NCBI GenBank assembly: GCA_963677745.1
Contig: OY782391.1
Span: forward strand, 192,448 to 256,447
Origin: Candidatus Altimarinota bacterium
GTDB lineage: Bacteria > Patescibacteriota > Gracilibacteria > UBA1369
Direction of reading: 5' to 3'
Length of the DNA stretch: 64,000 bases
In this document: positions 13,881 to 53,326 of the stretch, in pieces
How the letters are laid out: the number at the start of each line of letters is the position of its first letter
How positions within the stretch are numbered: the stretch's first letter is position 1
The notes under the pieces: model-generated
The model's database searches: none
Seen by the model: only the letters and a program-made list of their open reading frames with translations
What the model was told of the DNA's origin: nothing
Position numbers and translations under genes: made by a program

Positions 13881-16800
13881 ATGAAAGACTTCGAAAACAA
13901 CAATCTTCTCCGCTTCCCGGAACAAAACCAGAACCCCTTCCGTGAAAAAAGAACGGTCTGGATGAGTCCCGTCGAACAACAGTCGGAAAAACCGGCCGCC
14001 GGACCGGGAGTCGACATCAACAAGTCTGATTTTGACAATCTCGCCTTTAAAAACGAGTCCAGGGAAAATTTTGAAAAAATGGGCGGCAGCATCGACCAGA
14101 CAATTAAGAACCTGCTCAAAAAGCTGAAAGTGGAAAACAAAGAGCTGACCGAAGATCAGATTAATTTGCTCAGCGGAGAATTCCGCGAAGGTCTGCAAAA
14201 ATCCGTTGCTGACAAATGGACTTCCATTGCCGACAAGATCAAACAACCGGCCAGCCCCGCTCCCTCCCCCGCCGACGCACTGGATAAATTCCAAAACGGA
14301 CTGAAAGACCTCAATTGTATCCAGATCGGATTGGTCCATGACAACAGTGATGACACCACCAAATTCAAATTTTATTCAAAAACCGGAGAAATTGTTTTCC
14401 CCGCCACGGACATCGCCATTCAGTATGTACCAAAACAGGCCAGAGAAGCTGTTGCCGGAATGGAACAGGAAAAAGGCCTGCAGCAATTCACGGTCGCCAA
14501 AAACGCCCCCAAGGACAGGATGACTGGAGGAATCGACAACCTGAAATTTCTGGAAAGCCAGGGAGTCACCCCCAAAGACGGCGACTGGGTGGAGGTTATT
14601 CGCGGAACTAACAAAATCAAAGCTCAGTATGTGGAAAAAGACAAAAAATTTATTACCGAGGCCAAGACCCCGCTCTGGCTGATCGCCGGAGATAAAATCG
14701 AGTATCGACCAAAGGCCGTGGAGAAACCGGCGGCACAAATAGATGTAAACATCGACGGCACACCTTACGGAATCGTCCAGCAAATCGACCTGCCTGCCGG
14801 CACTACCTACTTGCAGGTGGCAGAGGCAATCATCAATAACAAAGGCAAACTGAACAACCAGCCCCTGGTGGAAGATGAAACAGTGACCCGGGTTACCAGA
14901 ACCAAAATCAGCGTACCCGAGTATGCCGAACTGCTCAAAAAAGCCCATGACGCCATGAAAGGACAACGTCTGCCAATTATCATTCCGGAAGCGCCTAAAG
15001 GCAGAAAAGAAGCAGGGGAAACAAAAAGAGAACAGCAGGAAACCAAAGTCAGAACTGAAAGAGAACAGGCCGCCAGCAAAGCCACCGATCAGTACGAATC
15101 CAAAAAAGCACTGCATACAATACAGATGGAACTGTATAACCGCGACCCCGAGAAATGGACTGAACTGAAAGCCCTGATTGCCGAATATGACGCCAAACTG
15201 GCAGCAGTTCCCAAAAACTCGGAACAATTCAATGAGTTATGGGAAGAATTCTGGGACAAAATGGAAGGCTTCTTCAAGAACGCCGGTCTGTCCCGTTCCG
15301 TCAGCAACGAAACCTATCTGGCCATGAAAGCCGGCAAAGACAGTTCCGCCTGGAAAGAAATGTGGGACGAAAAAAATCCCGGAGCCCAGAAAATCATCAA
15401 TATCATCGGGAAAAATCCTAAAGTTTTCACGGATAAAGAGCAGACCAAGCCCAATATGATCAGAAATAATATCTGGAAGCTGGTTTATGATACCGGAGAC
15501 GGACAAAGTTTTGATTCGGAAGATATTATCAATACCTTCGGCATCAAACTTCCCAATGAGATGAATTACGAGGACGTGCTGGCGCTGGCTGCTGCTCCTG
15601 ACACCGCCCTCAAAACGCCCGCCCTGAAAAGTCTTAAATCACTCTGTGACCAGTACGGAGGAGCCATCGAGGAATTGGCCAATGCCATCCACGATCTTAA
15701 CCCAAGCCTGACCCGCCGCGGTGCAGGCAAACGTGAACATGAAAAATTGTCAGAAAAAGCCCCCGACTTCGCCAGGGATCTCAAAACCATGGTGGACCTG
15801 CTTAATGTAGACTCCTCCACCGCCATCAAACAGGAAGATGAAAGAAATTATTCCTGTATCGTGGAAAAGAGCGGCAAGAGACTGATGCTCAGATCAACCA
15901 AAACCTCCGCCGGACAAACCCTGTCCGTCCTAGATCCGGACAATGGTACTCCCCTGATGAAGGAATATGATTACGGCAGACTGGACCAGCAGGATTATAT
16001 CGATAAAATCAATTCCATCTTCAATACGATGGCCAAATCGGTCACTGCGGAACGGGCAGGAGAAAAACCGCTGGCCGAAATCGCACTGACTCCCAATTCC
16101 AAACCTACTTTCCACAGCCTGCGCGACCTGGAGAGTCTGAACAAAGGTATTCCGGGCATGCCGGTCAAAGATCTTCTGGAAACCGGTAAAACCGGCGGTA
16201 CCAGATTCGGCTTTGATATAGATAACCTCAAAAACACCCTGACCGACGGACTGAAAACTGCACTCACGCGTATGGGTGTATTAAATAGTGCCAAGTTTGT
16301 GGACAGCCCCGCCAACCGGGTGGAAATGCAGGGCAACGATTCCGCGCTGGTAAATGTCCGTTACCGTGGAAAGGATTTGACCATGAAATTTGAAAACACC
16401 ACTGCCGGATACAATGTATATATAGCATCCGGTTTCAACCAGCCCGCCGACAAAATGACTCAGGTTCATTCAGAATGGGGCTCGATGGACAGTCAGGATG
16501 ATTTTATTAAGACGATGGATGAGGGCGTCAACAAACTTCCTGCCAATGCTGCCAAGATGGAAACCCAAAACCAGAACTCCGAAAGAATTACGGCCTCTGC
16601 CAAATGTTTTACGGATTTTAACAACAAGCTCGCCGAATATGCCAAATCTGTCGGTTACAAGGTCGACCTGAGCCTGACATACAGCCAGTTCGTGGAAGCA
16701 GTATTCCGCAGCCACTCCTTTGCAGATCTAAAAACCGAAGGTTGCGTGGCCAAAGTCAAAGGACAGGAAAAAGCCTTTATTCTGACTTCCCTGCCCGCCA

Positions 16801-19800
16801 AATTGCAGGATATCGGACACAATCTGCAACTATTACAGCTGGTCTACAGTATTAAATTCGGCACAGTCGGTGACCGCAGTTATGTCAACCTGACCTCCGC
16901 CGCCAGCGAAAAAGCCCGCGAATCAGTAGATACCCAACAAAAGTACGAACACCGTCTTAAGCAGCTGTTTGCCTACGGACTGACCGACTTCGACCAGGAA
17001 GGCCGAAAAGTCACCATGGGCGACACTGGCGTAGGCCGGGAATCAACCACCTACAGCAGCAAAGATGAGTATTTCAAAAAAGCCAGCGGCAACGCCGCCT
17101 ACAACGAATTCCAAATGTCCTTCCGCCGGTTTGATGCCAACGGCCGGGAAATCATGGACGTGCCCGCTGCCAACAAACGTCTCAATGATCTTTTCCAGAA
17201 AGGTTTGGCCAAATTGGACATGTTGAAAAGAGCACAACCTGCCTACAAGGAACTTGCCGAAAAAGTAGACAAGGCCGGCCTGAAAAACCGCGGCCCTCTA
17301 GATCTTAACCAGGAAAAAGACTTTACCGATCTGGAGGCGCAGGTGATTAGATTAGGCTACCTGAACTTCTCGGAGATGCAGGAGCTGGAACAAACCAAAA
17401 CACTGGAAAAAGCCAAAGAAGAATTGGTCGCTAATATCTTGAACCTGTTTCCGGACACCATAGTTGAGCCCAATGGTAAAACACATTCCAAACAAGAAAT
17501 CGGCACCGCACTCAAACAACTACCATTTGGAGTACTCCTGAGTTATTCATACGATTCCAATACAGATACTCATGCGGGAGGAATACATGTGCCGTTTATT
17601 CTGGATGTTTTCGGCAGCAAATACGCCAAACTGGTATTGGCACCCAGTGTAGGCAGCCAGGGAGTCGGACTTACCGTAGGTCTGGCCTTTACCAGTGAAG
17701 ATCCTCAGAATAAAGAACAGCGCGTGATCGTTTATGGAGGAGTGTCGATGGGAGCCACCCTCGGCCCCAACACCAGCTTTGGTGCAGCCATTAGCGGTGG
17801 CATAGATTTCAAAATATGCAAAGCCGATGAGATGGACAACTTCAACTATTATATAGGTTTGAAAGGAAACGCCGGAATTAATCTCGCCAAAAACCCCGCC
17901 GAAATGCTGGGTGGAGGTGTGGGTATAAAGCTTCTGGAATGGAAAATCGATACCGAACAAACTCTCATCAATGCCCGCAATAAGAGATTTACCGAGGAAG
18001 GAATTAAGGCTCCTCTCGATCAACTGGCAGCCATTTACAAAAATGGCAGCAAACCGCAGGAAATTAAAAATTTCTGCGACAGTCTTAAAGGAAACAAAGC
18101 TCTGGCTGAAAAAATCGGTCTGACGGCTGAAGATATGGCTCCAGGAAACGAAGCCAACATACTGATGAAATTTGAACAATTCGTGGGAGCTGTCACTGAA
18201 GATTTCTACAACACCTTTGATCTACCGCTAGTCATTGGAGGTGAAGTCAATTTCGGAGTAACACACGGTGTTCTGATTGCTTCCGGAGCAGCAACGGGCA
18301 ACATTCCTCTGGTTCTCGGAACAATCGTTGGCTGGGGCATACAGTTTCTGGCCAGTCTCAACTTCAATGTTGGTTCCCGCCAGGTCATGACCCGCGAACA
18401 GCGTACCAGCGAAGGCAACATGGAAGCCTTCAACGACCTCAAGACCCAGGAGCAGTTCGACAAAGCCTTCACCAGCTTCCGCAGGGACAGCGGTTCACAG
18501 GAATACTATACCTCCGGCCGCAATCTCAATACCAAGGAAGGCGGTATTCGAACCGAAATGGGAAAATCCAACAGTGCCAACCTGGAAATCAATAATTTTG
18601 AAACCCAGTTGGGGGCTTTCAATGAAACACTGACAGCCAAAAACATTCCGATGCGTATCCAGTCCAATCCCGACAAAACCATCGAAGTAATTTTGCTCAA
18701 TTCACAGGCAGCCAATAATGAAAGAATTCTTTTCTCGCCCGATGTGGCCACCGTCGTCAACGGACGCATCTTCCTGAAAAATCCCAACGCCCTGACCAAC
18801 CTTTATTTCAATCAGCAAAGCCGTGTTTATCCGCTGGAGACAAGCCACGGAGCAACCATTGAAACCATTATCACGGTTTCCAACAACCGCTTCAACAAAG
18901 CTGCCGACTTCCCCACCGAATTTTCTGTAACCAGACTGGCCGACAACAAAGACAAGCCGGTCTTCGGGGGCGAAAAAGTCCCCGCCGGAGCTCCGGAATC
19001 CTATAAACGGATTGAGATTAACCGCGTGGAAATCAAGGGAGATCAGGACAGAATGGCCAACGCACTCAACCAGAGCCAGTCCCAGGAAGCCAAGGAAAAT
19101 ATCAGACCCGATCTTAAGGAACAGGCTAAACGAATTTTAGCCTATACCAACAGCAAGCGCGAAACATTCATCTCCATCACCAACGACGAATCCAAAGAAA
19201 ACCTGGAAAATCCCAATTATTTTTCACAAAAACTTCACAGCTTTTATCAGGATTTTGCCAAAGACAAGAAAGCAGAACCTTTCAATGCACATGAAATGCG
19301 TATGCTGACATTGGAATTGTCCACCCTGCGCTATACCGAAATGATGAACAGTGCCACCGGCGTAACCGAAAGAGCCAAAGTGTTCGAGGACAGAATGAAA
19401 TGGGCGGAAAAAACACTCACTCCTTATTTTGACAGAAGAATTGCCGAGATAAATGCCCAGCTGGAAGCCACCGGCAAACCAAAGATTACTCATACCGGCA
19501 AGGAACTGGCTCTGAAAGCCACCCAGGATCTGCTGTACATGTCCACCAAGATGCCCAAGACCGAACTGCCACCTGGCACATCGGTATTTGTTGCCATCGG
19601 CCGCGGAGCTAACGGTCTCAACCAGATTCTGGACGGATCAAAAAATCCCGCCGATGAAGCGGAAAAAGGAATGGTGGATCAGTACGGCTATATCATGGGT
19701 AAAGATTACACTCAAATTATCAGAAGGGCTGAACCGGGCAATCTTGACTATGAAATTGGTCTGATCTTAATGGGACAACTTTCCAAACTTCCGGAAACAA

Positions 19801-20390
19801 AAGATGTTAAAAACTTTATGGACAGCAGTCTGGCCAGAAAACTGGCTTCCAACGGCGGTCTGCGTTTTATCTTGGGCAAACAGGCTTATGATGAAGTAAT
19901 CAGTCACTACAACTCCCCTTCCGACACCGCCTCTGCCGGCGTAACAAAATTCATGGAAGTTGTAAAACAGGTTCGTGAAGCACAGCTGGCAGGCAAGGAA
20001 AGCATCACAGTAACCGGCGAAAAAGGAGTGAAATTCCTGCTGCGCGTAGTCACGAACGTGCAATCCGGTATCTTTAACCGCTGCGGTAACTTCAGCTCCA
20101 TCATCACCGAAGACGTAGTCATTATGCCTCCTCCGATCGAGGACGCCATGGGACTGTTTGCTGCAGGCAGCGAAGCCAGAACCACCCTCAATGTCCAGAC
20201 CTACAAAGAATTCCTGGGACTGTTCGGCGGAGTCACCGCGGCAGTTACCCTGCCTACGGGTGGACCAGGCGCTGCACCCGCCAGTACCGGCGGATCGGGA
20301 GGTGAAACAGGAGGAACAACCGGATCCGGTCAGGGAGGCACGGTTGAAGCAGGACAAGGAGCAGGTACGGCAGAAACAGGATCATTTTAA
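13881..20390 (+). CDS. Giant hypothetical protein (2169 aa), no signal peptide, central Gly-rich amphipathic beta region, Gly/Thr-rich C-terminal tail
   Basis: Uninterrupted 6.5-kb ORF. Only short antisense shadow ORFs overlap it. I recognise no catalytic motif. Confidence 0.8.
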   Translation: MKDFENNNLLRFPEQNQNPFREKRTVWMSPVEQQSEKPAAGPGVDINKSDFDNLAFKNESRENFEKMGGSIDQTIKNLLKKLKVENKELTEDQINLLSGEFREGLQKSVADKWTSIADKIKQPASPAPSPADALDKFQNGLKDLNCIQIGLVHDNSDDTTKFKFYSKTGEIVFPATDIAIQYVPKQAREAVAGMEQEKGLQQFTVAKNAPKDRMTGGIDNLKFLESQGVTPKDGDWVEVIRGTNKIKAQYVEKDKKFITEAKTPLWLIAGDKIEYRPKAVEKPAAQIDVNIDGTPYGIVQQIDLPAGTTYLQVAEAIINNKGKLNNQPLVEDETVTRVTRTKISVPEYAELLKKAHDAMKGQRLPIIIPEAPKGRKEAGETKREQQETKVRTEREQAASKATDQYESKKALHTIQMELYNRDPEKWTELKALIAEYDAKLAAVPKNSEQFNELWEEFWDKMEGFFKNAGLSRSVSNETYLAMKAGKDSSAWKEMWDEKNPGAQKIINIIGKNPKVFTDKEQTKPNMIRNNIWKLVYDTGDGQSFDSEDIINTFGIKLPNEMNYEDVLALAAAPDTALKTPALKSLKSLCDQYGGAIEELANAIHDLNPSLTRRGAGKREHEKLSEKAPDFARDLKTMVDLLNVDSSTAIKQEDERNYSCIVEKSGKRLMLRSTKTSAGQTLSVLDPDNGTPLMKEYDYGRLDQQDYIDKINSIFNTMAKSVTAERAGEKPLAEIALTPNSKPTFHSLRDLESLNKGIPGMPVKDLLETGKTGGTRFGFDIDNLKNTLTDGLKTALTRMGVLNSAKFVDSPANRVEMQGNDSALVNVRYRGKDLTMKFENTTAGYNVYIASGFNQPADKMTQVHSEWGSMDSQDDFIKTMDEGVNKLPANAAKMETQNQNSERITASAKCFTDFNNKLAEYAKSVGYKVDLSLTYSQFVEAVFRSHSFADLKTEGCVAKVKGQEKAFILTSLPAKLQDIGHNLQLLQLVYSIKFGTVGDRSYVNLTSAASEKARESVDTQQKYEHRLKQLFAYGLTDFDQEGRKVTMGDTGVGRESTTYSSKDEYFKKASGNAAYNEFQMSFRRFDANGREIMDVPAANKRLNDLFQKGLAKLDMLKRAQPAYKELAEKVDKAGLKNRGPLDLNQEKDFTDLEAQVIRLGYLNFSEMQELEQTKTLEKAKEELVANILNLFPDTIVEPNGKTHSKQEIGTALKQLPFGVLLSYSYDSNTDTHAGGIHVPFILDVFGSKYAKLVLAPSVGSQGVGLTVGLAFTSEDPQNKEQRVIVYGGVSMGATLGPNTSFGAAISGGIDFKICKADEMDNFNYYIGLKGNAGINLAKNPAEMLGGGVGIKLLEWKIDTEQTLINARNKRFTEEGIKAPLDQLAAIYKNGSKPQEIKNFCDSLKGNKALAEKIGLTAEDMAPGNEANILMKFEQFVGAVTEDFYNTFDLPLVIGGEVNFGVTHGVLIASGAATGNIPLVLGTIVGWGIQFLASLNFNVGSRQVMTREQRTSEGNMEAFNDLKTQEQFDKAFTSFRRDSGSQEYYTSGRNLNTKEGGIRTEMGKSNSANLEINNFETQLGAFNETLTAKNIPMRIQSNPDKTIEVILLNSQAANNERILFSPDVATVVNGRIFLKNPNALTNLYFNQQSRVYPLETSHGATIETIITVSNNRFNKAADFPTEFSVTRLADNKDKPVFGGEKVPAGAPESYKRIEINRVEIKGDQDRMANALNQSQSQEAKENIRPDLKEQAKRILAYTNSKRETFISITNDESKENLENPNYFSQKLHSFYQDFAKDKKAEPFNAHEMRMLTLELSTLRYTEMMNSATGVTERAKVFEDRMKWAEKTLTPYFDRRIAEINAQLEATGKPKITHTGKELALKATQDLLYMSTKMPKTELPPGTSVFVAIGRGANGLNQILDGSKNPADEAEKGMVDQYGYIMGKDYTQIIRRAEPGNLDYEIGLILMGQLSKLPETKDVKNFMDSSLARKLASNGGLRFILGKQAYDEVISHYNSPSDTASAGVTKFMEVVKQVREAQLAGKESITVTGEKGVKFLLRVVTNVQSGIFNRCGNFSSIITEDVVIMPPPIEDAMGLFAAGSEARTTLNVQTYKEFLGLFGGVTAAVTLPTGGPGAAPASTGGSGGETGGTTGSGQGGTVEAGQGAGTAETGSF

Positions 20391-40536: not shown

Positions 40537-41982
40537 TTAAAAACCCAGTTCTTTTTTTAGGGCGTTGATATCTCGCTGCAGTTTCTGATCGATTTTCATC
40601 TGATTGATCACCTTGTTACAGGAATGCATAACCGTCGTATGATTTCTGCCGCCGAAACAATCACCGATCGATTCAAAAGACTGATTGAGAATTTCCCGTA
40701 TCAAATACATGCTGATCTGCCGCGGCCCCATCACTCCTTTTTTCCTGTCGGAACCGATCAATTCACTCTTGGTCAAACCGAAATATTTGGCAACAATGTC
40801 CACCACGTCCTCCAGTCCTCTCACCACAGTCTTATTCTGGTCTTTCAGATCGATGGTTTCCACGCCCTGCTGACTGTTGTTCTTGCGGATCACCTGGGCT
40901 ACCGAACGAATGGTGGGATTGGAATTTTCCAGCTGGGCCTCACCAATGGCGGTCACCAGCACACCAATCATCTCACGCACGCTGTTGGTAACGTTGAAGG
41001 CAATGAATTCCAGTACTTCCGGATCCAGCATCATCTGATATTCGGCGCAGCGGGCCTTGAGAATAGCCAGTCTTGTTTCGAAACTGGGTTTGGCCACCTC
41101 GATCAGCATTCCCATACCGAAACGGCTCTTCAGACGGTCGTCAAATCCTTCCAGTTCGCGCGGCGGACGGTCGGCACTCAGAATAATCTGCTTGCCGTTG
41201 TCGTATAAATCGTTAAAAGTATGGAAAAATTCCTGTTCGGAAGTCGATTTGTTGGCAAAAAACTGGATATCGTCAACGATCAGACAGTCCAGATTGCGAT
41301 ATTCATCCTTGAACGGTTTGGTATGTTTGCGTCCAATCGCTTCGACAATTTTATTGATAAAATGTTCGGCCGTCATATAGACAACCTTTTTCCCGGGATA
41401 ATTTTTCAGAATCTCATGGCCGGTGGCCTGCAATAAATGCGTTTTGCCCAGACCGACGCCGCCATAGATGTAGAGCGGATTATAAATTCCGGCCGGCTTG
41501 GCGCCGACAGCCATACAGGCGGCGTGCACCAGACGATTCTCGCTTCCCGGAATAAAATTGTGCAGGGTGTAGCGCTTGTCCAGAATTTTACTGCGCATAC
41601 CGCCGCCGATATCCACTTCCGGCCGGCCGGGCACTTTGCGAGGTTTGCGGGTGGTGCCGATAATCGCCATAAAACTGTCCTCCGACAATTTATCGGGATG
41701 ATTATCATCGTTGAGAGAAGTTTTCAGTTCATAATTGATGGAAACCAGATCGGGTAAAATCTCCCTGATCAAAGGCATTATTTTATCGTGATATTTATTG
41801 CGGACATGTTCGGGACCGATAATGGAGGCAAAGCCGATCAACAGCACCCCGTCACGATAGGAAAGAATGGCGCTTTTCATGAAAAACGACAGAAAATCAT
41901 TGCGATTGTCTTCCGTATAAATTCGGGAAAGAATCTTTTCCCAGGTAGCTTTCAGATCAATTTGTGTTAGCTCCTGGGTCAT
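40537..41982 (-). CDS. dnaA: Chromosomal replication initiator protein DnaA
   Basis: Walker A GGVGLGKTHL, Walker B LIVDDIQF, sensor motifs, and C-terminal domain IV (RQISMYLIRE ... GGRNHTTVMHSCNKV). Confidence 0.95.
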   Translation of the reverse strand: MTQELTQIDLKATWEKILSRIYTEDNRNDFLSFFMKSAILSYRDGVLLIGFASIIGPEHVRNKYHDKIMPLIREILPDLVSINYELKTSLNDDNHPDKLSEDSFMAIIGTTRKPRKVPGRPEVDIGGGMRSKILDKRYTLHNFIPGSENRLVHAACMAVGAKPAGIYNPLYIYGGVGLGKTHLLQATGHEILKNYPGKKVVYMTAEHFINKIVEAIGRKHTKPFKDEYRNLDCLIVDDIQFFANKSTSEQEFFHTFNDLYDNGKQIILSADRPPRELEGFDDRLKSRFGMGMLIEVAKPSFETRLAILKARCAEYQMMLDPEVLEFIAFNVTNSVREMIGVLVTAIGEAQLENSNPTIRSVAQVIRKNNSQQGVETIDLKDQNKTVVRGLEDVVDIVAKYFGLTKSELIGSDRKKGVMGPRQISMYLIREILNQSFESIGDCFGGRNHTTVMHSCNKVINQMKIDQKLQRDINALKKELGF

Positions 41983-45798: not shown

Positions 45799-46263
45799 AT
45801 GGAATACAAACTACCACCGATCGGCCGCATCTACATTCAGGATTATGATTATTCCTGCGGGCCCTGCTGCATTCTCAACCTGCTAACCCTGAAAGGCCGT
45901 TACGGCAAATACACTGAAGAAGAAATGATTCTTTTTTGCAATTCCAACGAAACCGAAGGTACAACCCGGGAAGGGCTGATACGGGGACTGGAAAGTTCGG
46001 GACTGGAAATAGCCGAAGAAAAAGAAAATGCCTTGCTTGCCGACATTGACCGCCATCTGGGGAAAAAACATTTTGTGATTGTCAATTACTTCCATCTGTA
46101 CGCCAATGTAGGACATTATGGCGTAATTTTTGACAGCGACCCGGAAGGTTATTATCTGCTGGACAGTTCGCTGGGACTATTACGCCTGGACAAACCGGAT
46201 TTTGAAAAACACTGGCACAGCCATGACAACACCCTGCGGCACCACCTGATTGCCTTGATTTAA
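45799..46263 (+). CDS. Papain-fold cysteine peptidase, C39-like
   Basis: Putative nucleophile context DYDYSCGPCCILNLL and downstream His context NVGHYGVIFDSD. Convergent with the integrase gene. Confidence 0.55.
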   Translation: MEYKLPPIGRIYIQDYDYSCGPCCILNLLTLKGRYGKYTEEEMILFCNSNETEGTTREGLIRGLESSGLEIAEEKENALLADIDRHLGKKHFVIVNYFHLYANVGHYGVIFDSDPEGYYLLDSSLGLLRLDKPDFEKHWHSHDNTLRHHLIALI

Positions 46264-46266
46264 AGT

Positions 46267-47079
46267 TTATAACGGACTGCGGATATGAGTTAAATCACTG
46301 CTACAGACGCTGGTATAAATCTGGGTCGTTCTGATGCTACTATGGCCCAGTAATTCCTGAACATAACGCAGATTCACTCCCGACCGCAACAGATGAGTAG
46401 CAAAACTATGCCTTAAAGCATGAAAAGAAGCCGGTTTATTGATCCCCGATAGTTTTAAGGCCCTCGCAAAAGCCAATTGTGGAGTTCTCACCGAGAGTTT
46501 CCCGCCTCTTTCACTTACAAACAAGTATTCTCCGGGTGGCTTCCCGGAGCACTCTGTTTTAATGTTCATCAGCAACCTTTCTGGCAACAATGTTACTCTC
46601 TGTTTTCGCCCTTTTCCGTGTACTACGCGAATTGTTTTCGTATAGAAATCAATGTCCCGCACTTTTATATTCACCAGTTCATTCACCCTCAGCCCTGCGC
46701 CATAGGCCAGCGCCATCATCAGCTGATGTTTGCGATTTTTCACATTTTTCAACAAAACAATTATTTCCCCATGCTGAAAGACAACCGGCACTTTCAAAGT
46801 CTTTTTGGCAAACTTGATACTGCTCGGGAAATCGCGATCCAGCGCCCACCGGTAAAAAAACTTGATCGCATTCAGATAAAGATTGACGGTCTGCGGTGAA
46901 TAGCCCTGATCACGCTTGGCAATCAGATAAGCTTCCACATTTTGCCGATGGGGAAATTGATAACAGTGATGATTTTTATCCAGATAATCACGGATACAGG
47001 CCATATATGCCTGATGTGTCCTTTCACTGTAGTTCTTCAGCCGGATCTGATCGGACATTTTTGTAAGATATTTGTACAT
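46267..47079 (-). CDS. intI: Tyrosine recombinase, integron-integrase-like but compact (270 aa, no IntI-specific insertion)
   Basis: Catalytic set is present: AGLRVNE (Arg), HGKGRKQR (Lys), HALRHSFATHLL (His-x-x-Arg), LLGHSS (His), TQIYTSV (Tyr). The C-terminal ...IRSPL and N-terminal YSERTHQAYMACIRDYL resemble IntI1 (...[24 protein letters not shown], recalled from memory). Confidence 0.8.
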   Translation of the reverse strand: MYKYLTKMSDQIRLKNYSERTHQAYMACIRDYLDKNHHCYQFPHRQNVEAYLIAKRDQGYSPQTVNLYLNAIKFFYRWALDRDFPSSIKFAKKTLKVPVVFQHGEIIVLLKNVKNRKHQLMMALAYGAGLRVNELVNIKVRDIDFYTKTIRVVHGKGRKQRVTLLPERLLMNIKTECSGKPPGEYLFVSERGGKLSVRTPQLAFARALKLSGINKPASFHALRHSFATHLLRSGVNLRYVQELLGHSSIRTTQIYTSVCSSDLTHIRSPL

Positions 47080-47207
47080 CTATTTCCCCATAATTATTCA
47101 AACCCAAAATACTCCCGCAACCTGACCCCAGAATAAAATTTCCATAAAAACCTTCCTTCCCCCCACAATTTCGCCTAGAATGTCCAAAACTGCCCTCTAT
47201 CCCCAAA

Positions 47208-47232
47208 CCCTAACGCTAGACCGGAGTTGTGC
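47208..47232 (+). other. attI-like simple site (CCCTAAC - 11 nt - GTTGTGC), predicted crossover after G at 47226
   Basis: GTTGTGC at 47226-47232 is the exact reverse complement of the R'' core (GCACAAC) of the first attC. An inverted CCCTAAC box lies at 47208-47214. The site is 147 nt from the recombinase start. Confidence 0.6.
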
Positions 47233-47288
47233 AAAATTGAGAAATTATGTTATTAAAACACCCTGTACATATTTATAATGCATAGTAT

Positions 47289-47453
47289 ATGAAGAAAAAA
47301 TTGGAAAACAAGCCAGAGGGACCATACAGAACAAATGCTTTAGAAAAAGGAAAAGAACGTCCTTTATTAGAAAGAATCGCCTATTACATCGCTGATATTA
47401 GAAAATCAATAAAAGATAGCCAACCTGACTGGTACAAAAAATACGGCCTCTAA
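47289..47453 (+). CDS. Cassette 1 small ORF (54 aa), hypothetical
   Basis: ATG at 47289, TAA at 47451-47453: MKKKLENKPEGPYRTNALEKGKERPLLERIAYYIADIRKSIKDSQPDWYKKYGL. It is below the ORF-track cutoff. It ends 12 nt before attC1. Confidence 0.4.
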   Translation: MKKKLENKPEGPYRTNALEKGKERPLLERIAYYIADIRKSIKDSQPDWYKKYGL

Positions 47454-47465
47454 TTTCTCAACTCC

Positions 47466-47546
47466 GCACAACAGCGCCTGTGCGGTTTGGTTGCGACCTC
47501 TCCCAAATTGCCTGCGGGCAACTTCGCTCAGGCGCGACCGTTATAC
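47466..47546 (+). repeat. attC site 1 (81 bp, short class)
   Basis: R'' is GCACAAC and R' is GTTATAC. The inner arms CGCCTG/CAGGCG pair with asymmetric spacers (AG versus CGACC). Central hairpin TTGCC-TGCG-GGCAA. Confidence 0.8.
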
Positions 47547-47604
47547 GCAATAATTTTGAGAGGTCAAAAAAAGCGTTATGTAAGTTAATGTATTTTCAGA
47601 TAAT

Positions 47605-48312
47605 ATGAGAAAGAACATTTTGATCACAGGCATGCCAAGAAGTGGCAAATCCACCCTTCTTAAGAAAATAATCCCAAAATTTAATCCAAAAGTTGGTTTT
47701 GTGACTAATGAAGTTCGTAAAGACAACGAAAGAGTCGGTTTTGAATTAGAAACACATACCGGACAAAAAACTATGCTTGCACACGTGGACTTCATCACCA
47801 ACTTAAAAGTTTCAAGATATTTTGTAGAGATTAAAAATCTTGATGAAATAATACCAAGCGTAGATAAATTTAATGAGCACGATTTTCTTTTTCTTGATGA
47901 AATAGGACAAATGGAATTGTTCTCTGAAAAATTTAAATTTCTTGTCGAAAAATATCTAGATTCCCCTAATGTTTGTATTGCAGCCTTGTCAAAAGTTTAT
48001 AGTGATGAATTTATTGAAGCTATCAAAAGAAGAAACGATATTTTCCTATTTGAGATCACTGAAGAAAATCGCAATGGAAAAAAAGAATATCTTGAAACTT
48101 TATTGAGAAAAATAGCAAAAGCAAAAAGATATGTTTCTGAACCAAACAGATTCTCAATAAATCAAAATGAAGTTACTATTGCGACAGATCATGGCACAAG
48201 AATACTAACAAAACAAAAAGAAGAATGGATTTGCAATTGTAAATTCTTCAAAGAAAATAAAATATGTAGCCACGTCATTGCACTTGAAGAATATCTGAAA
48301 ATACATAGATAA
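47605..48312 (+). CDS. Cassette 2: THEP1-like NTPase fused to a C-terminal SWIM-type zinc finger
   Basis: Walker A GMPRSGKST and Walker B FLFLDEIG. The layout resembles the NTPase THEP1 family. C-terminus CNCKFFKENKICSH (CxCx9CxH). Confidence 0.7.
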   Translation: MRKNILITGMPRSGKSTLLKKIIPKFNPKVGFVTNEVRKDNERVGFELETHTGQKTMLAHVDFITNLKVSRYFVEIKNLDEIIPSVDKFNEHDFLFLDEIGQMELFSEKFKFLVEKYLDSPNVCIAALSKVYSDEFIEAIKRRNDIFLFEITEENRNGKKEYLETLLRKIAKAKRYVSEPNRFSINQNEVTIATDHGTRILTKQKEEWICNCKFFKENKICSHVIALEEYLKIHR

Positions 48313-48386
48313 AGTACGACCTCTTAAAATTACTTTCTCCTTTCAGTCGAACCACACTGCGCTCTCCTCCTTTCAGTCGTCGGGGC

Positions 48387-48522
48387 GTATAACAGCGCAA
48401 GTGCGGTTCCGCTCCCTTTGGTCGCTCCACCCAACTTTGGCTCCTCTCTTCCAGCAAGTGTGTAAATATTGTACACTTGCTGCGTTCGTAGCCAATGTTC
48501 GCACGTTGCGCGGGCGTTGTGC
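48387..48522 (+). repeat. attC site 2 (136 bp, long class)
   Basis: R'' is GTATAAC and R' is GTTGTGC. The arms CGCAAGTGCG / CGCACGTTGCG pair with bulges. Central hairpin GCAAGTGT...ACACTTGC. It is preceded by a 13-bp direct repeat CTCCTTTCAGTCG (48337 and 48367). Confidence 0.8.
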
Positions 48523-48539
48523 GCAATAATTTTTTCCAA

Positions 48540-49067
48540 ATGATCAAATCATATACTCAAACCACATACGAAACATGCCTAGCCTGCTGTTTATTACAAG
48601 CTACTCAAGTCAATTTTGACAATAAAATGGAACTAGCGGTTATAAATCATTCTTTAAAATATTCCAAAGATGATTTCGTTGCGGGACACCTAGATTTTAT
48701 ACATCAAAAATTTGATAAAAGGATCACCAGGATTGTGGATAATAAGTATTTCCATAACTATCTAAAAAGCATAAAACACCCAAATGTAGATATTAGAGTT
48801 GAAAAGATCGATCTTAAGACTATTGATAAATACATTGCTACGACCCCCATAATCTTATATATCGATTCCTATATTCTATTTAAAGTTAATCATTATCCAC
48901 ATTTCATAACTGTATTAAGCAAAAAAGATGACGAATATCAAATTTTTGACACATGGGATGGAAAAATCAAAAACCTAAAAAGTGTTTTGTTGTCAAAATC
49001 AATTCAATCACTAAGAAATCATCTTAAATTCTGTCCTCAAATTATCATTATTGAAAGGAAAAAATAA
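48540..49067 (+). CDS. Cassette 3: papain-fold C39-like cysteine peptidase
   Basis: TYETCLACCLLQA (Cys context) and NHYPHFITVL (His context). The ATG at 48540 is 18 nt after attC2. The track start at 48495 lies inside the repeat. Confidence 0.55.
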   Translation: MIKSYTQTTYETCLACCLLQATQVNFDNKMELAVINHSLKYSKDDFVAGHLDFIHQKFDKRITRIVDNKYFHNYLKSIKHPNVDIRVEKIDLKTIDKYIATTPIILYIDSYILFKVNHYPHFITVLSKKDDEYQIFDTWDGKIKNLKSVLLSKSIQSLRNHLKFCPQIIIIERKK

Positions 49068-49070
49068 AGC

Positions 49071-49219
49071 GCACAACAGCGCAAGTGCGGTTCCGCTACC
49101 CTCAGCTAAAGCTTCGGGTCGCTCCACCCAACTTTGGCTCCTCTCTTCCAGCAAGTGTTGAAATATTGTACACTTGCTTCGTTCGCAACCAATGTTCGCA
49201 CGTTGCGCGGACGTTGTCT
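49071..49219 (+). repeat. attC site 3 (149 bp, long class)
   Basis: R'' is GCACAAC and R' is GTTGTCT. It is near-identical to attC2 and attC4 apart from a 13-nt insertion. Confidence 0.8.
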
Positions 49220-49274
49220 GCCATTGACAAAAGGGATAGCTAGTTCTATTAATACACCCTATTAATAAAGCACT

Positions 49275-49517
49275 ATGGATATTTTTGAGAAAGGAGAAAC
49301 CGCGTTCTATCATGAAATGGGTGCAATTTTAAAAGTCAAAGTCACTGAAAGTTCATTTGATGGCGAATTTGCAGATTATCATTTGCTCATTCTTGAAGTA
49401 TTACGTAAAAGCCCACACAGAGATGTCACCTTCAGGGTCGATGAAAAAATTGAGTGTACTGACTGTAAATCCATGGATAACGCCCCTATGCAGGCGTTCA
49501 GACTATCAAAAACCTAA
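49275..49517 (+). CDS. Cassette 4: hypothetical protein (80 aa)
   Basis: The only sizeable same-strand ORF between attC3 and attC4. No recognised family. Confidence 0.5.
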   Translation: MDIFEKGETAFYHEMGAILKVKVTESSFDGEFADYHLLILEVLRKSPHRDVTFRVDEKIECTDCKSMDNAPMQAFRLSKT

Positions 49518-49527
49518 TATCAACAGC

Positions 49528-49663
49528 AGACAACAGCGCAAGTGCGGTTCCGCTCACTCCGGTCGCTCCACCCAACTTTGGCTCCTCTCTTCCGGCAGGT
49601 GTGTAAATATTGTACACTTGCCTCGTTCGCAGCCAATGTTCGCACGTTGCACGGGCGTTATAT
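49528..49663 (+). repeat. attC site 4 (136 bp, long class)
   Basis: R'' is AGACAAC and R' is GTTATAT. Same architecture as attC2. Confidence 0.8.
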
Positions 49664-49687
49664 GAAATCGCGATTTTTTCTTTCCCA

Positions 49688-50515
49688 ATGAAAAAGCCCA
49701 TTCACAGATCAAAACTGAGACTATTTGCCGGCAGATTGTACTTTTTATTAAGAAGGCATCTTTATTGGTATTTTTCAAAGGTGGATTTTGTGAAAAATTT
49801 TGAAAGCCATTTACCAATTGAAATTTTTGCTCACAAAACTATTTTGCGAAGAAAGCTTAAAGACATAGATATATGGATGCAGGAAAACAAGATCGCAAAT
49901 TTGAAAATTGCCATAAAAAAGCTTGATGGATTAATTATAAACCCTGGACAAACTTTTTCTTATTGGCGACATATCGGCAAGCCAACAAAAAAAAAGGGGT
50001 ATCTTGAAGGCATGGTGCTGCATAATGGAACGGTTATTGCAGGAATTGGCGGCGGGTTATGCCAATTATCAAATCTGCTTTACTGGATTACGCTCCACAC
50101 GCCGTTAACTGTTATTGAACGATGGCGACACGGTTACGATGTTTTTCCAGATGTAAAAAGAGATCAACCTTTTGGTAGTGGAGCGACTTGTGCTTATCCA
50201 AACATTGATCTGCAAATCAAAAATAACACTCCCCAAAAATTTCAATTGGCACTCGAAATCACCGATGAATATTTAATTGGCAAATGGCTTTCTGATAAAC
50301 CGATAAAATTAAAGTACAAAATCTTTGAAAAGGATCATGAGATAAAAAACGAATGGTTTGGCGGATTCTCAAGAAATAACAAAATTTTTCGCAAAGTAAT
50401 TGATAAAAATAGCAATAAAGAGCTAGGCGAAGAGTTTTTAACCGAAAATCACGCTTTAATGATGTACAATCCGCTAATTGAATATAAAGAAGAAAAAAAT
50501 CGCTACATCAAATAA
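49688..50515 (+). CDS. Cassette 5: VanW-family protein
   Basis: GGGLCQLSNLLYW and surrounding beta-rich sequence are typical of VanW domains. The ATG at 49688 is 25 nt after attC4. The stop TAA is embedded in the next R'' core. Confidence 0.75.
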   Translation: MKKPIHRSKLRLFAGRLYFLLRRHLYWYFSKVDFVKNFESHLPIEIFAHKTILRRKLKDIDIWMQENKIANLKIAIKKLDGLIINPGQTFSYWRHIGKPTKKKGYLEGMVLHNGTVIAGIGGGLCQLSNLLYWITLHTPLTVIERWRHGYDVFPDVKRDQPFGSGATCAYPNIDLQIKNNTPQKFQLALEITDEYLIGKWLSDKPIKLKYKIFEKDHEIKNEWFGGFSRNNKIFRKVIDKNSNKELGEEFLTENHALMMYNPLIEYKEEKNRYIK

Positions 50516-50556
50516 CAGCACATACTTCGCACTTTGCATATGCGCGACCGTTGTGC
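50510..50556 (+). repeat. attC site 5 (47 bp, truncated or minimal)
   Basis: R'' is AAATAAC and R' is GTTGTGC. The 3' half (CTTCGCACTTTGCATATGCGCGACCGTT) matches the 3' half of attC6. The central part is missing. Confidence 0.6.
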
Positions 50557-50636
50557 GAGAAAATGAACTCAGCAACATCAGGTTTGGCAAAAAACACTTT
50601 TAAGGTTATAATACTCTGAAGCCTTTAAAATAATTT

Positions 50637-50957
50637 ATGAAAGATTCAGAAAAAGAAAGCATAACACCTAACTCCAATCAAGAAATATTCGAGGCTGCAA
50701 TTTCGGCAGCTCTGGAAATAGCAAAACGCGATCAACTCAAGTTAGGTACAACAGTATGTATTGCAGGAGAAGAGCCCTCATATTCATATTCTCTCAAAGA
50801 GATCAATGGAGATATGGCACTTATAGAAGATGAGGATGATGAATTAGAGAAGTCAGTACCTTTGAATTCATTATATGAACCAAATGTAGCCTGGAATATT
50901 GCCAATAAAATCCATTCCCAGGCAATTTCAATGACCAAACCTGAGAAATTAGAATAA
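50637..50957 (+). CDS. Cassette 6: hypothetical acidic protein (106 aa)
   Basis: Single same-strand ORF between attC5 and attC6. Confidence 0.5.
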   Translation: MKDSEKESITPNSNQEIFEAAISAALEIAKRDQLKLGTTVCIAGEEPSYSYSLKEINGDMALIEDEDDELEKSVPLNSLYEPNVAWNIANKIHSQAISMTKPEKLE

Positions 50958-50986
50958 AGTTGATACTAAAATCTTTTCATTTCATC

Positions 50987-51101
50987 GCACAACAGCACCC
51001 AAGGCGGTTCGCTGCGGCCTCACCCAAATGCTCGCGCGGTTTAGCACTTCGTGCTACCATTTTACCGTGCTTCGCACTTTGCACATGCGCGACCGTTAAG
51101 T
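50987..51101 (+). repeat. attC site 6 (115 bp, medium class)
   Basis: R'' is GCACAAC and R' is GTTAAGT. It shares the core CACCCAAATGCTCGCGCGGTTT.GCAC.TCGTGCTA.CATTTTACCGTGCTT with attC9. Confidence 0.8.
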
Positions 51102-51122
51102 GCAATTCTTTATCAGCTCGAT

Positions 51123-51404
51123 ATGATTCTCAAAAAGTTCAAATATATATATCACCTCCTCATTGGTATTGTTTTAGCAATCACATATATTGCTATCAGT
51201 CTAACTTTTAAATGGCATGTGTTGCTAGAACCATTTCTATACTTACCCAATGTTTTAAATATAAGATATTTCTGCAGTGGAAAAGAGTGTGTGGGCGTCT
51301 TCTCCTATGTAATCTTTGCATCAATGATAATAATTTTCAGTATATTAAGCATAGGAATATCATTCCTGATAAAAAATATTTATAGAAAAAAGAACTGCAC
51401 TTAA
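51123..51404 (+). CDS. Cassette 7: hypothetical small membrane protein (93 aa)
   Basis: The ATG at 51123 is 22 nt after attC6. Three hydrophobic helices. The stop TAA lies inside the R'' core of attC7. Confidence 0.5.
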   Translation: MILKKFKYIYHLLIGIVLAITYIAISLTFKWHVLLEPFLYLPNVLNIRYFCSGKECVGVFSYVIFASMIIIFSILSIGISFLIKNIYRKKNCT

Positions 51405-51479
51405 CAGCGCCTGTGAGGTTCGACCACGACCTCTCCCAAATTGCCTACGGGCAACTTCGCCCAAGCGCGACCGTTAAGT
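51399..51479 (+). repeat. attC site 7 (81 bp, short class)
   Basis: R'' ACTTAAC is a perfect RYYYAAC and R' GTTAAGT is a perfect GTTRRRY. The two are exact reverse complements. Same architecture as attC1. Confidence 0.85.
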
Positions 51480-51498
51480 GAAATAATTATTTTTTCTT

Positions 51499-52026
51499 AT
51501 GTGGAAAACAGTATCATCCAAAGAAATTTTCAATCATCCCCGCCTCACTTTAATGGAGGACGAAATAATTTTGCCCAATGGTGTAAAAACATCCTATTTA
51601 AAATATAAAGACAATGGTGGTTGTTGCGTCACCGTAGTAACAAAAAGAGATGATGGAAAAATCCTGCTTCAGACTGAATATTCATACCCGCCAAACGAAA
51701 AACTTTTGCAATTTCCCGGAGGTGGTGTCCCGGCTTCAGAGAAACCAGAGGTTGGAGCCAATCGTGAATTAATGGAGGAGGCCGGACTAAAGGCCAATAA
51801 TTTAAAATTGCTCGGCAGTTACCTCATCAATAATCGCCGTTCAGCCATGAAGATGTATATTTTCCTCGCCACTGACCTGCAAGAAGAATGTTTACCCGGC
51901 GATATTGAGGAAGATCTTGAAAGTTTCTGGTTTTCCGAAAACGAAATTGGAGATATGATTAGAAACGGGCAAATCGTCAATGTGCACATTCTTGCCGCCT
52001 GGAGTCTGTATAATAATCAAAAATAA
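51499..52026 (+). CDS. Cassette 8a: NUDIX hydrolase (ADP-ribose pyrophosphatase-like)
   Basis: Nudix box GGGVPASEKPEVGANRELMEEAGL. Confidence 0.85.
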   Translation: MWKTVSSKEIFNHPRLTLMEDEIILPNGVKTSYLKYKDNGGCCVTVVTKRDDGKILLQTEYSYPPNEKLLQFPGGGVPASEKPEVGANRELMEEAGLKANNLKLLGSYLINNRRSAMKMYIFLATDLQEECLPGDIEEDLESFWFSENEIGDMIRNGQIVNVHILAAWSLYNNQK

Positions 52027-52033
52027 GTTCGTC

Positions 52034-52059
52034 ACTCAACAACACCTATAACGCTATAA
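52034..52059 (+). repeat. Relic attC (26 bp), a collapsed junction between two formerly separate cassettes
   Basis: ACTCAAC (52034-52040) is 1 mismatch from the complement of the cassette-8 start GTTAAGT. GCTATAA (52053-52059) is 1 mismatch from GTTATAA, the complement of the attC8 R'' core TTATAAC. Confidence 0.45.
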
Positions 52060-52074
52060 GTAATTTTCATTTTT

Positions 52075-52374
52075 ATGAAAGAAAAAACCATTAAAGAGAT
52101 TACAAGTTTAATCATGCTTCAAGCTAAAGAAAAAGGGTTCGGCATCACCCCGGAAGAAATAGATTTCCCGCGAAAAATCGCATCATTACATTCTGAGGTT
52201 ACGGAGGTTTATGATGCCTACAGAAAGAAGGGAATCAAGAGAACTGATTTAATCGGTAAGGAACTTTGCGATGTAATACAAAGGACATTACATTTATGCG
52301 GAGTTTTTAAGATAGACGTAGAGAAGGAAATTTTGAAAAAAATAAAAATCAATTCAAAAAGAAGTTGGAATTAA
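52075..52374 (+). CDS. Cassette 8b: MazG-like nucleotide pyrophosphohydrolase (small all-alpha NTP-PPase)
   Basis: 99 aa with the acidic helix pattern LHSEVTEVYDA ... GKELCDVIQRTLHL, typical of MazG-like domains. Confidence 0.6.
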   Translation: MKEKTIKEITSLIMLQAKEKGFGITPEEIDFPRKIASLHSEVTEVYDAYRKKGIKRTDLIGKELCDVIQRTLHLCGVFKIDVEKEILKKIKINSKRSWN

Positions 52375-52398
52375 TATTTGAAAGCTACTTATAACAGC

Positions 52399-52478
52399 GC
52401 CTATGTAGTTCGGCTGCGGCCTACCCAAATTGCCTGCGGGCAACCTCCCCCAAGCGGGGGCATTGGGAAAAACGCAGA
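52399..52478 (+). repeat. attC site 8 (80 bp, short class, degenerate R')
   Basis: R'' is TTATAAC. The body aligns with attC1 and attC7. The R' position reads ATTGGGA instead of GTTRRRY. Confidence 0.6.
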
Positions 52479-52481
52479 TTC

Positions 52482-53129
52482 CTATCCATTCAAAAATGCT
52501 TTTATCTTGTCTCTGCACTCGACACATAAAACCTCACCCCGTACATCAAAATAAGCAGCCCTACTATCCTCATCTTTAAACTCGGGATCATTCCAACCGC
52601 GATTCACCATTGGACAATATTTATTGTCTACAACTGCATTATGATGTTTGAGGCCAAATAAATGACCAAGTTCATGAATGATTACCGAGCGTGTTCGTCC
52701 AATAATTCTTTTTAGATCCTCTGTATTTGTAACACATCTGGCCTCAAGCGTAGTCACCAAAGCTGTCCCATTTATTCTGTCGGCGGTACCACCAGCCCTA
52801 AGCCCACGCACACTGATCATTTTGTCAGTGACTATTAAGCCGTGCCGTATTTGTGAGCCGAACCGATGTCGACGCATGGAATGGAGCACCTGTCCTATAT
52901 CTCTATGGACACCTTGGTCCGGAATTCCGTTGATCATGTTTCGGGTACCTAAAAAAACATCACAGGCATAAGCATCTGGTGATACTAAATCCTTTACCGA
53001 ATTCTGAGAAAAGATACGAATTTCGGAATAGGCACCGTCAAAAGCCGATAATGCCGGCTGGCACAACTTTTCTAATTCCTTATGCTCAAGCGCTGTGTCA
53101 AGCGGTAGGACAAGCAGGTTTTTTTGCAT
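52482..53129 (-). CDS. Cassette 9 (inverted): zinc metallopeptidase, metzincin/archaemetzincin-like
   Basis: HELGHLFGLKHH (HEXXHXXGXXH), followed by CPM and a distal CVEC pair. I chose the ATG at 53129. The longer track ORF (to 53315) runs into attC9. Confidence 0.65.
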   Translation of the reverse strand: MQKNLLVLPLDTALEHKELEKLCQPALSAFDGAYSEIRIFSQNSVKDLVSPDAYACDVFLGTRNMINGIPDQGVHRDIGQVLHSMRRHRFGSQIRHGLIVTDKMISVRGLRAGGTADRINGTALVTTLEARCVTNTEDLKRIIGRTRSVIIHELGHLFGLKHHNAVVDNKYCPMVNRGWNDPEFKDEDSRAAYFDVRGEVLCVECRDKIKAFLNG

Positions 53130-53151
53130 GATGCTGATTGTTAGAGCGAGT

Positions 53152-53180
53152 ACTCTATAACTTTCTTCACAAAATGTCAA
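53152..53180 (-). promoter_or_regulatory. Sigma-70 promoter candidate for the inverted cassette gene (TTGACA-17 nt-TAGAGT)
   Basis: On the minus strand there is a perfect -35 TTGACA (53180-53175) and a -10 TAGAGT (53157-53152) with a 17-nt spacer. The -10 is 23 nt upstream of the ATG at 53129. Confidence 0.55.
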
Positions 53181-53217
53181 TACCCAGAAAGCAACAAGGA
53201 AATGCCTTCTCTCCAAA

Positions 53218-53326
53218 CCATAACTGTGCGTTTCGGCTACGGTCCCACCCAAATGCTCGCGCGGTTTGGCACATCGTGCTAGCATTTTACCGTGCTTTGC
53301 ACTTCGAATATGCACGGACGTTAGGC
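53218..53326 (+). repeat. attC site 9 (109 bp, medium class)
   Basis: R'' is CCATAAC. R' is GTTAGGC, the canonical GTTRRRY. Same polarity as the other sites although the enclosed gene is inverted. Confidence 0.8.

Follow-up and report, generated by a model that had tools for sequence, protein, structure and literature searches.

Here, we describe a locus in a Peregrinibacteria-like bacterium of the candidate phyla radiation (CPR) that is likely a chromosomal integron of the sedentary type, relying on an integrase different from the classical one. In the window, i.e., the whole 64-kb stretch of DNA that was analyzed, the locus has the architecture of an integron, carries footprints at G|TT and shares a cassette with another species, and across the family of its recombinase, integrase gene, attI and oriented hairpins are linked. 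The recombinase is a short protein without the insertion that is characteristic of IntI proteins, and the hairpins have a geometry of their own. Judged from its sequence, the locus is best read as a distinct integron variant.

The recombinase and its relatives

The integrase gene (46267-47079, minus strand) starts with ATG, is uninterrupted and is read in the direction away from the cassettes; its product is identical to the 270-aa protein that the initial annotation had recognized as a tyrosine recombinase with all catalytic residues. In agreement with that assignment, Pfam identifies a Phage_integrase catalytic domain (3e-43) and an N-terminal SAM_4 domain, and the catalytic set R-K-H-R-H-Y, which is invariant among the homologues, corresponds to R131, K156, H220, R223, H246 and Y255. 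A search of the 64-kb window for a second tyrosine recombinase returned none, leaving this protein as the sole one there.

We determined the spacing of the catalytic arginines in an alignment of 75 recombinases, including 15 true IntI proteins obtained by translating loci of Vibrio, Azonexus, Calditrichia and other taxa. R131 and R223 are 92 residues apart in the window integrase, as are the corresponding residues in every CPR homologue aligned, compared with 134 to 135 residues in the 15 true IntI proteins; in E. coli, the value is 95 for XerC and 99 for XerD. The spacings that the initial annotation had given (92 here, ∼134 in IntI1 and ∼99 in XerD) are, thus, correct. The match to VchIntIA (PDB 2a3v) is split, with residues 4-176 of the query aligning to residues 5-180 and residues 200-270 to residues 247-317, and 23 residues of the integrase occupy the place of 66 in IntI. 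Based on the alignment to VchIntIA and the 15 true IntI proteins, ∼43 IntI residues are absent from the window integrase, and the extra material of IntI consists of two blocks of ∼32 and ∼11 aa that flank the “YVFP” strand. The claim that the IntI-specific insertion is absent therefore holds, the missing residues being in two pieces. In an AlphaFold2 model of the integrase (mean pLDDT 85), residues 177-199, which take the place of the IntI insertion, form only short strands. The closest solved fold to this model is VchIntIA (E 2e-17, 31% identity), followed by XerA; ranked by sequence, XerA (4a8e, 128 bits) and VchIntIA (126 bits) are about equal among the solved structures, and XerD scores lower (89 bits).

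An assembly error or a frameshift that hides the insertion had been named at the outset as an explanation to be checked, and it is already refuted. The ORF is intact, identical copies of the integrase are present on independent contigs, and many homologues have the same length and the same spacing of 92 residues; because of these copies and homologues, we regard the insertion as truly absent rather than lost to an artefact.

Among the candidates, 5225 homologues were detected at E<=1e-20, and the best 120 of these 5225 are almost all 269 to 275 aa long (range 269 to 300 aa). Among the NCBIfam models, that for archaeal XerA scores best and narrowly misses its cut-off (214.4 versus 220 bits), and the two IntI models, TIGR02249 (200.5 versus 265) and PRK15417 (145.9 versus 435), both of which match in two stretches, stay below theirs, as do the models for XerC (175.6 versus 335) and XerD (162 versus 330). 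A neighbor-joining tree gathers the CPR proteins in a clade of their own (100%) and the true IntI proteins in another (99%), and an exclusive grouping of the two was recovered in only 6% of replicates, a value to be read in light of the method, which was distance-based with 100 bootstraps and biased sampling and thereby limits how the deep order can be read. This tree gives no support to the suggestion in the initial annotation that the protein represents a basal, streamlined IntI lineage. We count both results, i.e., that the HMM score is no closer to IntI than to archaeal XerA and that the protein is not sister to IntI in the tree, against an integron reading. Of the IntI-like features that had been proposed, the C-terminal RSPL motif is real, but it is not exclusive to IntI. 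Besides IntI and the CPR clade, further short recombinases have it, among them those of DPANN archaea, and it is absent from E. coli XerC and XerD.

A subgroup of Xer-related recombinases of candidate phyla, designated “Cand”, has been described and its members are presumed to be Xer stand-ins (Smyshlyaev et al. 2021; PMC8138268). The window integrase very probably belongs to this group. The lack of the insertion is not peculiar to this locus but is a trait of a large CPR recombinase family that has so far been filed as Xer-like. The host is probably a Peregrinibacteria-type CPR bacterium, as the closest relatives of its DnaA that have a name (78-79% identity) are labelled Peregrinibacteria.

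attI, cassettes and recombination footprints

In three species, conservation of the region between the integrase gene and the first cassette (47080-47228, plus strand) extends as far as ...ACCGGA-G|TT, and we consider this region the putative attI. The species are those of the window and of two related loci, L003 and L005, with integrases that are 72-73% identical. In all three, the 147 nt from the start of the integrase gene to the GTT at 47226 are conserved; in the alignment, similarity stops exactly at GTT, and the sequence beyond it is species specific. The GTT at 47226-47228 is, therefore, the likely attI crossover, with the bottom strand reading AAC|TCCGGTCTAGCG. Moreover, in each of the three loci (3/3) the bases after the attI GTT and the R'' box of the first attC are complementary to each other, and the attI junctions matching their own first attC are GTTAGGCGG in L003 and GTTAAATGCC in L005. 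The same relation is found at greater distance. Among 12 loci with integrases that are 42-52% identical, nine have a perfect 9-mer, i.e., the reverse complement of GTT plus six bases of the integrase-proximal hairpin, located 72-217 nt upstream of the integrase start, and the chance expectation of such a 9-mer junction is 0.002-0.02 per locus. In these distant loci, the 9-mer is followed by the shared motif AAC|TCCTTTTTATCYG, the counterpart of the AAC|TCCGGTCTAGCG of the window. A scan for promoters and terminators around attI was uninformative. Altogether, the integrase gene appears to adjoin an attI with its crossover at G|TT.

On the other side of this putative attI, nine attC-like hairpins (47466-53326) lie on the plus strand between small ORFs. 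Cassette 1 (47229-47540) contains a 54-aa ORF (47289-47453) and ends in attC a1 (47466-47546; GCACAAC-A-GCGCCTG...CAGGCGC-GACC-GTTATAC). It is followed by an NTPase_1/SWIM cassette (47605-48312) with attC a2 (48387-48522), in which an extra G is present on the top-strand 3' arm past a 6-bp stem; a 190-aa cassette with a weak C39-like match (48495-49067) and a3 (49071-49219); an 80-aa cassette (49275-49517) and a4 (49528-49663); a VanW cassette (49688-50515) and the very short a5 (50510-50556), with 39 nt from AAC to GTT; and a 106-aa cassette (50637-50957) and a6 (50987-51101). The arms of a6 pair poorly and the site is chimeric, with a 5' arm like that of an L003 site and a 3' part like those of a5 and a9. 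Site a7 (51399-51479) is 82% identical to a1. The NUDIX cassette (51476-52062; ORF 51499-52026) has a remnant of its own attC at ∼52034-52062, with GTT changed to GCT. A 99-aa ORF (52075-52374) precedes a8 (52389-52470), which has a degenerate 3' end with GTT changed to ATT, and the last recognizable site, a9 (53218-53326), is preceded by an ORF on the opposite strand (52482-53132). The features of this list are all on the plus strand except for the latter ORF. The cassette products are of an accessory type (NTPase, VanW, NUDIX). That a5, a6 and a8 are short, chimeric or decayed counts against the integron reading as far as recent activity is concerned. The array as a whole has the form of cassettes that each end in an imperfect palindrome with RYYYAAC/GTTRRRY ends and a hybrid R' box.

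A search for further attC sites beyond 53.3 kb detected only a decayed remnant near 60570-60700, and we did not regard the genes of this region as cassettes, because they are closely spaced and some of them (PMSR, SelR) are conserved in L003. Rfam gave no match over 46-64 kb. Just past the array, we noted genes for SOUL, DUF1801 and Imm5-like proteins.

The junctions between cassettes carry a further footprint. When the bases after the GTT of one site are compared with the reverse-complemented R'' box of the site that follows, 4, 6, 6, 6, 2, 6, 7 and 1 nt match beyond GTT/AAC at successive junctions. The corresponding same-site controls gave matches of 0, 0, 2, 0, 0, 0 and 5 nt, and non-adjacent pairs match by 1.1 nt on average. 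Comparison between species adds to this picture. The flank C39 peptidase-pyrH-frr-rseP-dnaA is common to the window, L003 and L005, with the integrase gene ∼4.3 kb from dnaA, and the cassettes differ. The NUDIX cassette is also present in L005 (4767-5294) with different neighbors, and its identity there (90% at the aa level and 85% at the nt level) is well above that of the integrases (73%). Thus, one conserved place in the chromosome carries a varying set of cassettes, and different arrays share cassettes. Three lines of evidence, i.e., the conservation of attI, the complementarity of the junctions and the variable cassettes, point to site-specific recombination at G|TT.

Geometry of the hairpins and their linkage to the recombinase

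We traced the stems of 36 sites from 17 loci site by site. In their top-strand form, these sites read RYYYAAC-A-[stem]...[stem]-NNNC-GTTRRRY; the base after AAC is A in 34 of the 36 sites, and the spacer is of the 1-nt/4-nt type in 29. Stems of different sites are unrelated in sequence, and the stem is uninterrupted over 11-12 bp in 24 of the 36 sites, a proportion obtained with a hairpin scan that favors regular stems and may under-sample sites with extrahelical bases. The initial annotation had described asymmetric attC bulges in the window; the asymmetry is real, but the proposed form AAC-AG-CGCCTG is better written as AAC-A-GCGCCTG ... CAGGCGC-GACC-GTT, with 1 nt opposite 4. All five clear bulges among the 36 sites are on the top-strand 3' arm, i.e., the bottom-strand AAC arm, which is opposite to the classical arm; in L003, a base bulges from the classical arm of one site. 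The top-strand GC skew is negative in 34 of the 36 sites, and classical attC sites have the same negative skew (PMC5027507).

As controls, we analyzed sites next to true IntI genes, and these conform to the published classical anatomy. In a Vibrio locus (L080), the spacer is 3/3 and the L box 5 bp, with an extra G and an extra T on the bottom-strand 3' arm; in a Calditrichia locus (L047), the spacer is 5/3 and the L box 6 bp, with three extra bases on the bottom-strand 3' arm. In classical attC sites, the extrahelical bases occupy the arm opposite the AAC triplet and direct strand choice (PMC5027507), and the I2 helix of IntI docks these bases (PMC7790495). This anatomy, with an unpaired spacer on two arms and extrahelical bases opposite AAC, is not found in the CPR sites, as sampled by a scan that is biased to regular stems. 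Because the enzyme has no domain to read such bases and the sites have no such bases to be read, protein and site co-vary. The earlier suggestion of a different mode of folded-attC recognition fits these observations, in that sites without extrahelical bases have a conserved 4-nt/1-nt spacer asymmetry instead.

Because the extra bases are on the “wrong” arm, we also weighed the option that recombination uses the top strand and rejected it as the main reading based on the attI junctions, the orientation of the ORFs and the greater stability and G-richness of the bottom strand, all of which correspond to the classical polarity. RNAalifold on a MAFFT alignment of 13 sites gave no global structure, which we attribute to indels in the variable center that shift the alignment columns. 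A spacer-length table derived from contiguous 7-bp stems was too noisy and was dropped, as was a lenient finder for AAC...GTT hairpins, for which real and shuffled sequence were equal (134 versus ∼130 matches).

Using a strict hairpin scan (AACA, 1-nt/3-5-nt spacer, stem score >=8.5), we analyzed 27 loci of the CPR clade. Upstream of the integrase gene and on the opposite strand, 27 sites were detected per 135 kb, compared with densities of 0.07, 0.23 and 0.17 per 10 kb in the other three classes of position and strand and with 0-1 matches per class in shuffled sequence. A strict match is present in 14 of the 18 loci with at least 880 nt of upstream sequence; the known sites of L003 and L005 fall below the threshold, and L089 and L097, which have long upstream flanks, have no strict-scan match, a result that counts against our reading. 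Around further homologues, we observed runs of small opposite-strand genes, including a HepT/MNT toxin-antitoxin pair. Many contigs end just upstream of the integrase gene, as would be expected if repeats break assemblies.

Proposed mechanism, alternatives and implications

We suggest that the 270-aa recombinase binds the double-stranded attI beside its own gene and, in the cassette hairpins (attC), the bottom strand in its folded form, where it would contact the R box and the 11-12-bp stem. One strand would be exchanged at AA|C (G|TT in the top strand), resulting in cassette insertion and excision as in classical integrons. The folded site would comprise the R box, an asymmetric spacer, in which the cleaved arm has 4 nt and the other arm a single T, and a mostly uninterrupted 11-12-bp stem. 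In this model, the 4-nt bulge opposite the single T would kink the site and mark its polarity, and the spacer asymmetry would, thus, set strand choice and polarity. The unequal central region may then block the second strand exchange, with replication resolving the junction. Catalysis by the window integrase, recombination of a single strand and a role of the spacer are proposals that we derive from sequence comparison. An IntI1 protein from which the insertion has been deleted loses all activity (cited in PMC7790495); therefore, recombination without the insertion would need a different solution.

An integron with its own integrase is not the only way in which the locus could be understood. 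The recombinase might be a housekeeping dimer resolvase, i.e., a single Xer protein like XerA, that happens to lie beside an array made by another, absent integrase (a “CALIN”). The near miss of the archaeal XerA model (214 versus 220 bits) and the published classification of the candidate-phyla clade as Xer-like (PMC8138268) would fit such a scenario; nevertheless, we think it quite improbable, because the adjacency, the opposite-strand orientation and the attI junction 72-217 nt away recur in loci in which the integrases are only 42-52% identical and the flanks differ, the 64-kb window encodes no other tyrosine recombinase, the integrase gene is ∼4.3 kb from dnaA and not at the terminus, and the site geometry is unlike that of sites served by true IntI. 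A related scenario, in which one enzyme has a dual function and both resolves dimers at a dif site elsewhere and runs the cassette platform, is unlikely in our view. It draws on the wide distribution of the recombinase family in small CPR genomes, on the Xer-like size of the integrase and its lack of an extra domain, and on the low ancestral activity on double-stranded dif-like sites that IntI retains (PMC4792948, PMC7790495); however, nothing in the data from the 64-kb window requires a second role.

The repeats themselves could be terminators or another family of intergenic hairpins between small genes, given that they are GC-rich hairpins after ORFs and that one of them was caught by the terminator scan. 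Such hairpins would not be expected to have conserved AAC...GTT ends or to show complementarity between a junction and the next site, to be matched at the attI junction in nine of 12 loci, to accompany a whole cassette common to two species, or to be so strongly biased in where they lie and how they are oriented with respect to a single gene family, and we consider this explanation very improbable. We retain the reading of the locus as an integron with a different integrase.

Compared with classical integrons (IntI1, VchIntIA, the Vibrio superintegron), the locus is similar in that the integrase gene faces away from the array and adjoins an attI with a G|TT crossover; in that imperfect hairpins have RYYYAAC...GTTRRRY ends, a hybrid R' box and a bottom strand that is more stable and G-rich; and in that the cassettes are small and accessory (NUDIX, VanW, immunity-like) and VchIntIA is the closest solved fold of the integrase. 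It differs in that the integrase has neither the I2 helix nor the beta-hairpin insertion (92 versus 134-135 residues), forms a separate clade and scores below the NCBIfam cut-offs for IntI, and in that the CPR sites combine a 4-nt/1-nt spacer with a long regular stem, unlike classical attC sites with their 3-6-nt two-arm spacer and extrahelical bases opposite AAC. Archaeal XerA and the “Cand” group resemble the window integrase in size, in having two domains and no insertion and, for the DPANN relatives, in the SPL motif. Unlike XerA, which acts on one double-stranded 28-bp dif, the window integrase is tied to attI and to arrays of hairpins of variable length with cassette footprints.

The sites of Acinetobacter pdif modules are double-stranded, 28 bp long and of alternating orientation. 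To our knowledge, hairpins, an attI and an oriented array are all missing from these modules. The movement of these plasmid modules has been attributed to Xer-type recombinases (XerC/XerD) that have no IntI domain (PMC7399989). The best mechanistic precedent is provided by XerC/XerD acting on the folded single-stranded genome of the CTX phage, in which the irregular center of the hairpin permits one exchange and replication finishes the process (PMC7790495). By analogy, a Xer-type enzyme without I2 could act on a folded hairpin in the CPR loci as well; in the case of CTX, however, a phage hijacks the host dif, and the system is not a dedicated platform that has an attI of its own and stockpiles cassettes.

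The extra domain is what currently defines an integron integrase, in tools (IntegronFinder with its intI_Cterm profile) as well as in evolutionary models, and I2 and single-strand recombination have been said to occur only in IntI (PMC7790495). If our reading is correct, an integrase that lacks the insertion is paired in nature, and in a conserved way, with attI and hairpin cassettes; this would break the definition and provide a natural test of what the IntI insertion is needed for. It would also place cassette platforms in a very large and poorly known part of bacterial diversity, in which current pipelines are expected not to call a complete integron. In the open-access literature, to which our search was confined, we came across no report of candidate phyla with integrons or attC arrays, and the IntegronFinder 2.0 survey does not mention Patescibacteria and, in the passages searched, names no candidate-phylum lineage. 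The question can be addressed by standard E. coli recombination assays.

A broader proposal, for which we see the case as evenly balanced, is that the CPR Xer-like recombinases, filed as dimer resolvases, are the integrases of a second widespread integron class, which would recombine hairpins without I2 by means of the 4-nt/1-nt asymmetry; hairpin recombination would then either have arisen independently of I2 or predate it, and related short enzymes may act likewise elsewhere, e.g., in an Ignavibacteriota genome. Outside the CPR clade, no AAC...GTT hairpins could be made out in the repeats near a short integrase of a Firmicutes MAG (L016), and those near a short integrase in Oceanirhabdus (L025) resemble terminators; both were set aside. 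An Ignavibacteriota genome (L021), also outside the CPR, encodes a short integrase that is 39% identical to that of the window and has a spacing of 95 residues, and its gene is followed on the same strand by at least five hairpins of the same geometry.

Insertion-less integrases and their repeats in other loci

The insertion-less integrase type, together with the asymmetric 1-nt/4-nt spacer geometry of its hairpins, extends past the candidate phyla. This is evident from an Ignavibacteriota MAG (L021, 10001-20819), which encodes a short integrase with 95 residues between the two catalytic arginines. At least five hairpins of the form GCCTAAC-A-[12 bp]...[12 bp]-AGAC-GTTAGCC come after this integrase on the same strand. 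A marine metagenome contig (L105, 12530-20000) encodes a short integrase with 38% identity and five same-strand repeats; these have AAC...GTT ends, but a spacer of ~2 nt/6 nt and weaker stems. In a Firmicutes MAG (L016, 200-4550), five repeats spaced by ~1 kb, each opening with ...CGCCTAAC-GCCTATTGGCTAAACG, are situated upstream of a short integrase, one that clusters with that of L021; AAC...GTT hairpins could not be resolved in these five repeats.

Among the 36 stem-traced sites in 17 loci, the closing pair of the 11-12-bp stem is nearly always G-T on the top strand, and the same pair on the bottom strand would be an A-C mismatch. In the site family of the window, a conserved CCCAAAT / ACTTCGC core flanks this pair.

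Chromosomal setting of the proposed integron platform

In the window, dnaA (40537-41982) lies ~4.3 kb from the integrase, which heads the platform (46267-53326). Because of this distance, the platform adjoins the probable replication origin. The gene order C39 peptidase-pyrH-frr-rseP-dnaA is common to the window and the related-species locus L003, and in a second such locus, L005, the same C39 peptidase-pyrH-frr-rseP order is seen up to the limit of the contig at rseP. The Peptidase_C39-family gene of the window (45799-46263) is positioned directly at the integrase stop, and this position is kept in related species.

In eight contigs from candidate phyla (L007, L008, L010-L014, and L022), the sequence upstream of the integrase gene runs for only 10-583 nt before the contig stops. 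Contig ends at this place are what one would expect if short-read assemblies are interrupted there by repeated attC sites.

Irregular sites and neighboring genes in the window

Several sites of the array are irregular. In the attC a5 (50510-50556), the distance between AAC and GTT ends is a mere 39 nt. The arms of a6 (50987-51101) derive from two different site types and scarcely pair, the attC of the NUDIX cassette is left as a stub alone (52034-52062) in which GTT has become GCT, and a8 (52389-52470) has ATT as its R'. Moreover, the ORF after a8 (52482-53132) is on the opposite strand. Altogether, these irregular sites and the reversed ORF look like the products of decay or rearrangement. 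Far past the array, the stretch at 60570-60700 has 70% identity to the central part of a2-a4 and lacks recognizable AAC/GTT ends; it may be a fossil site.

Within the array, the cassette protein encoded at 48495-49067 has a weak C39-like (DUF3335) match. Elsewhere in the window, two giant ORFs (13881-20390 and 20423-26305) of 2169 and 1960 aa are neighbors on the plus strand.
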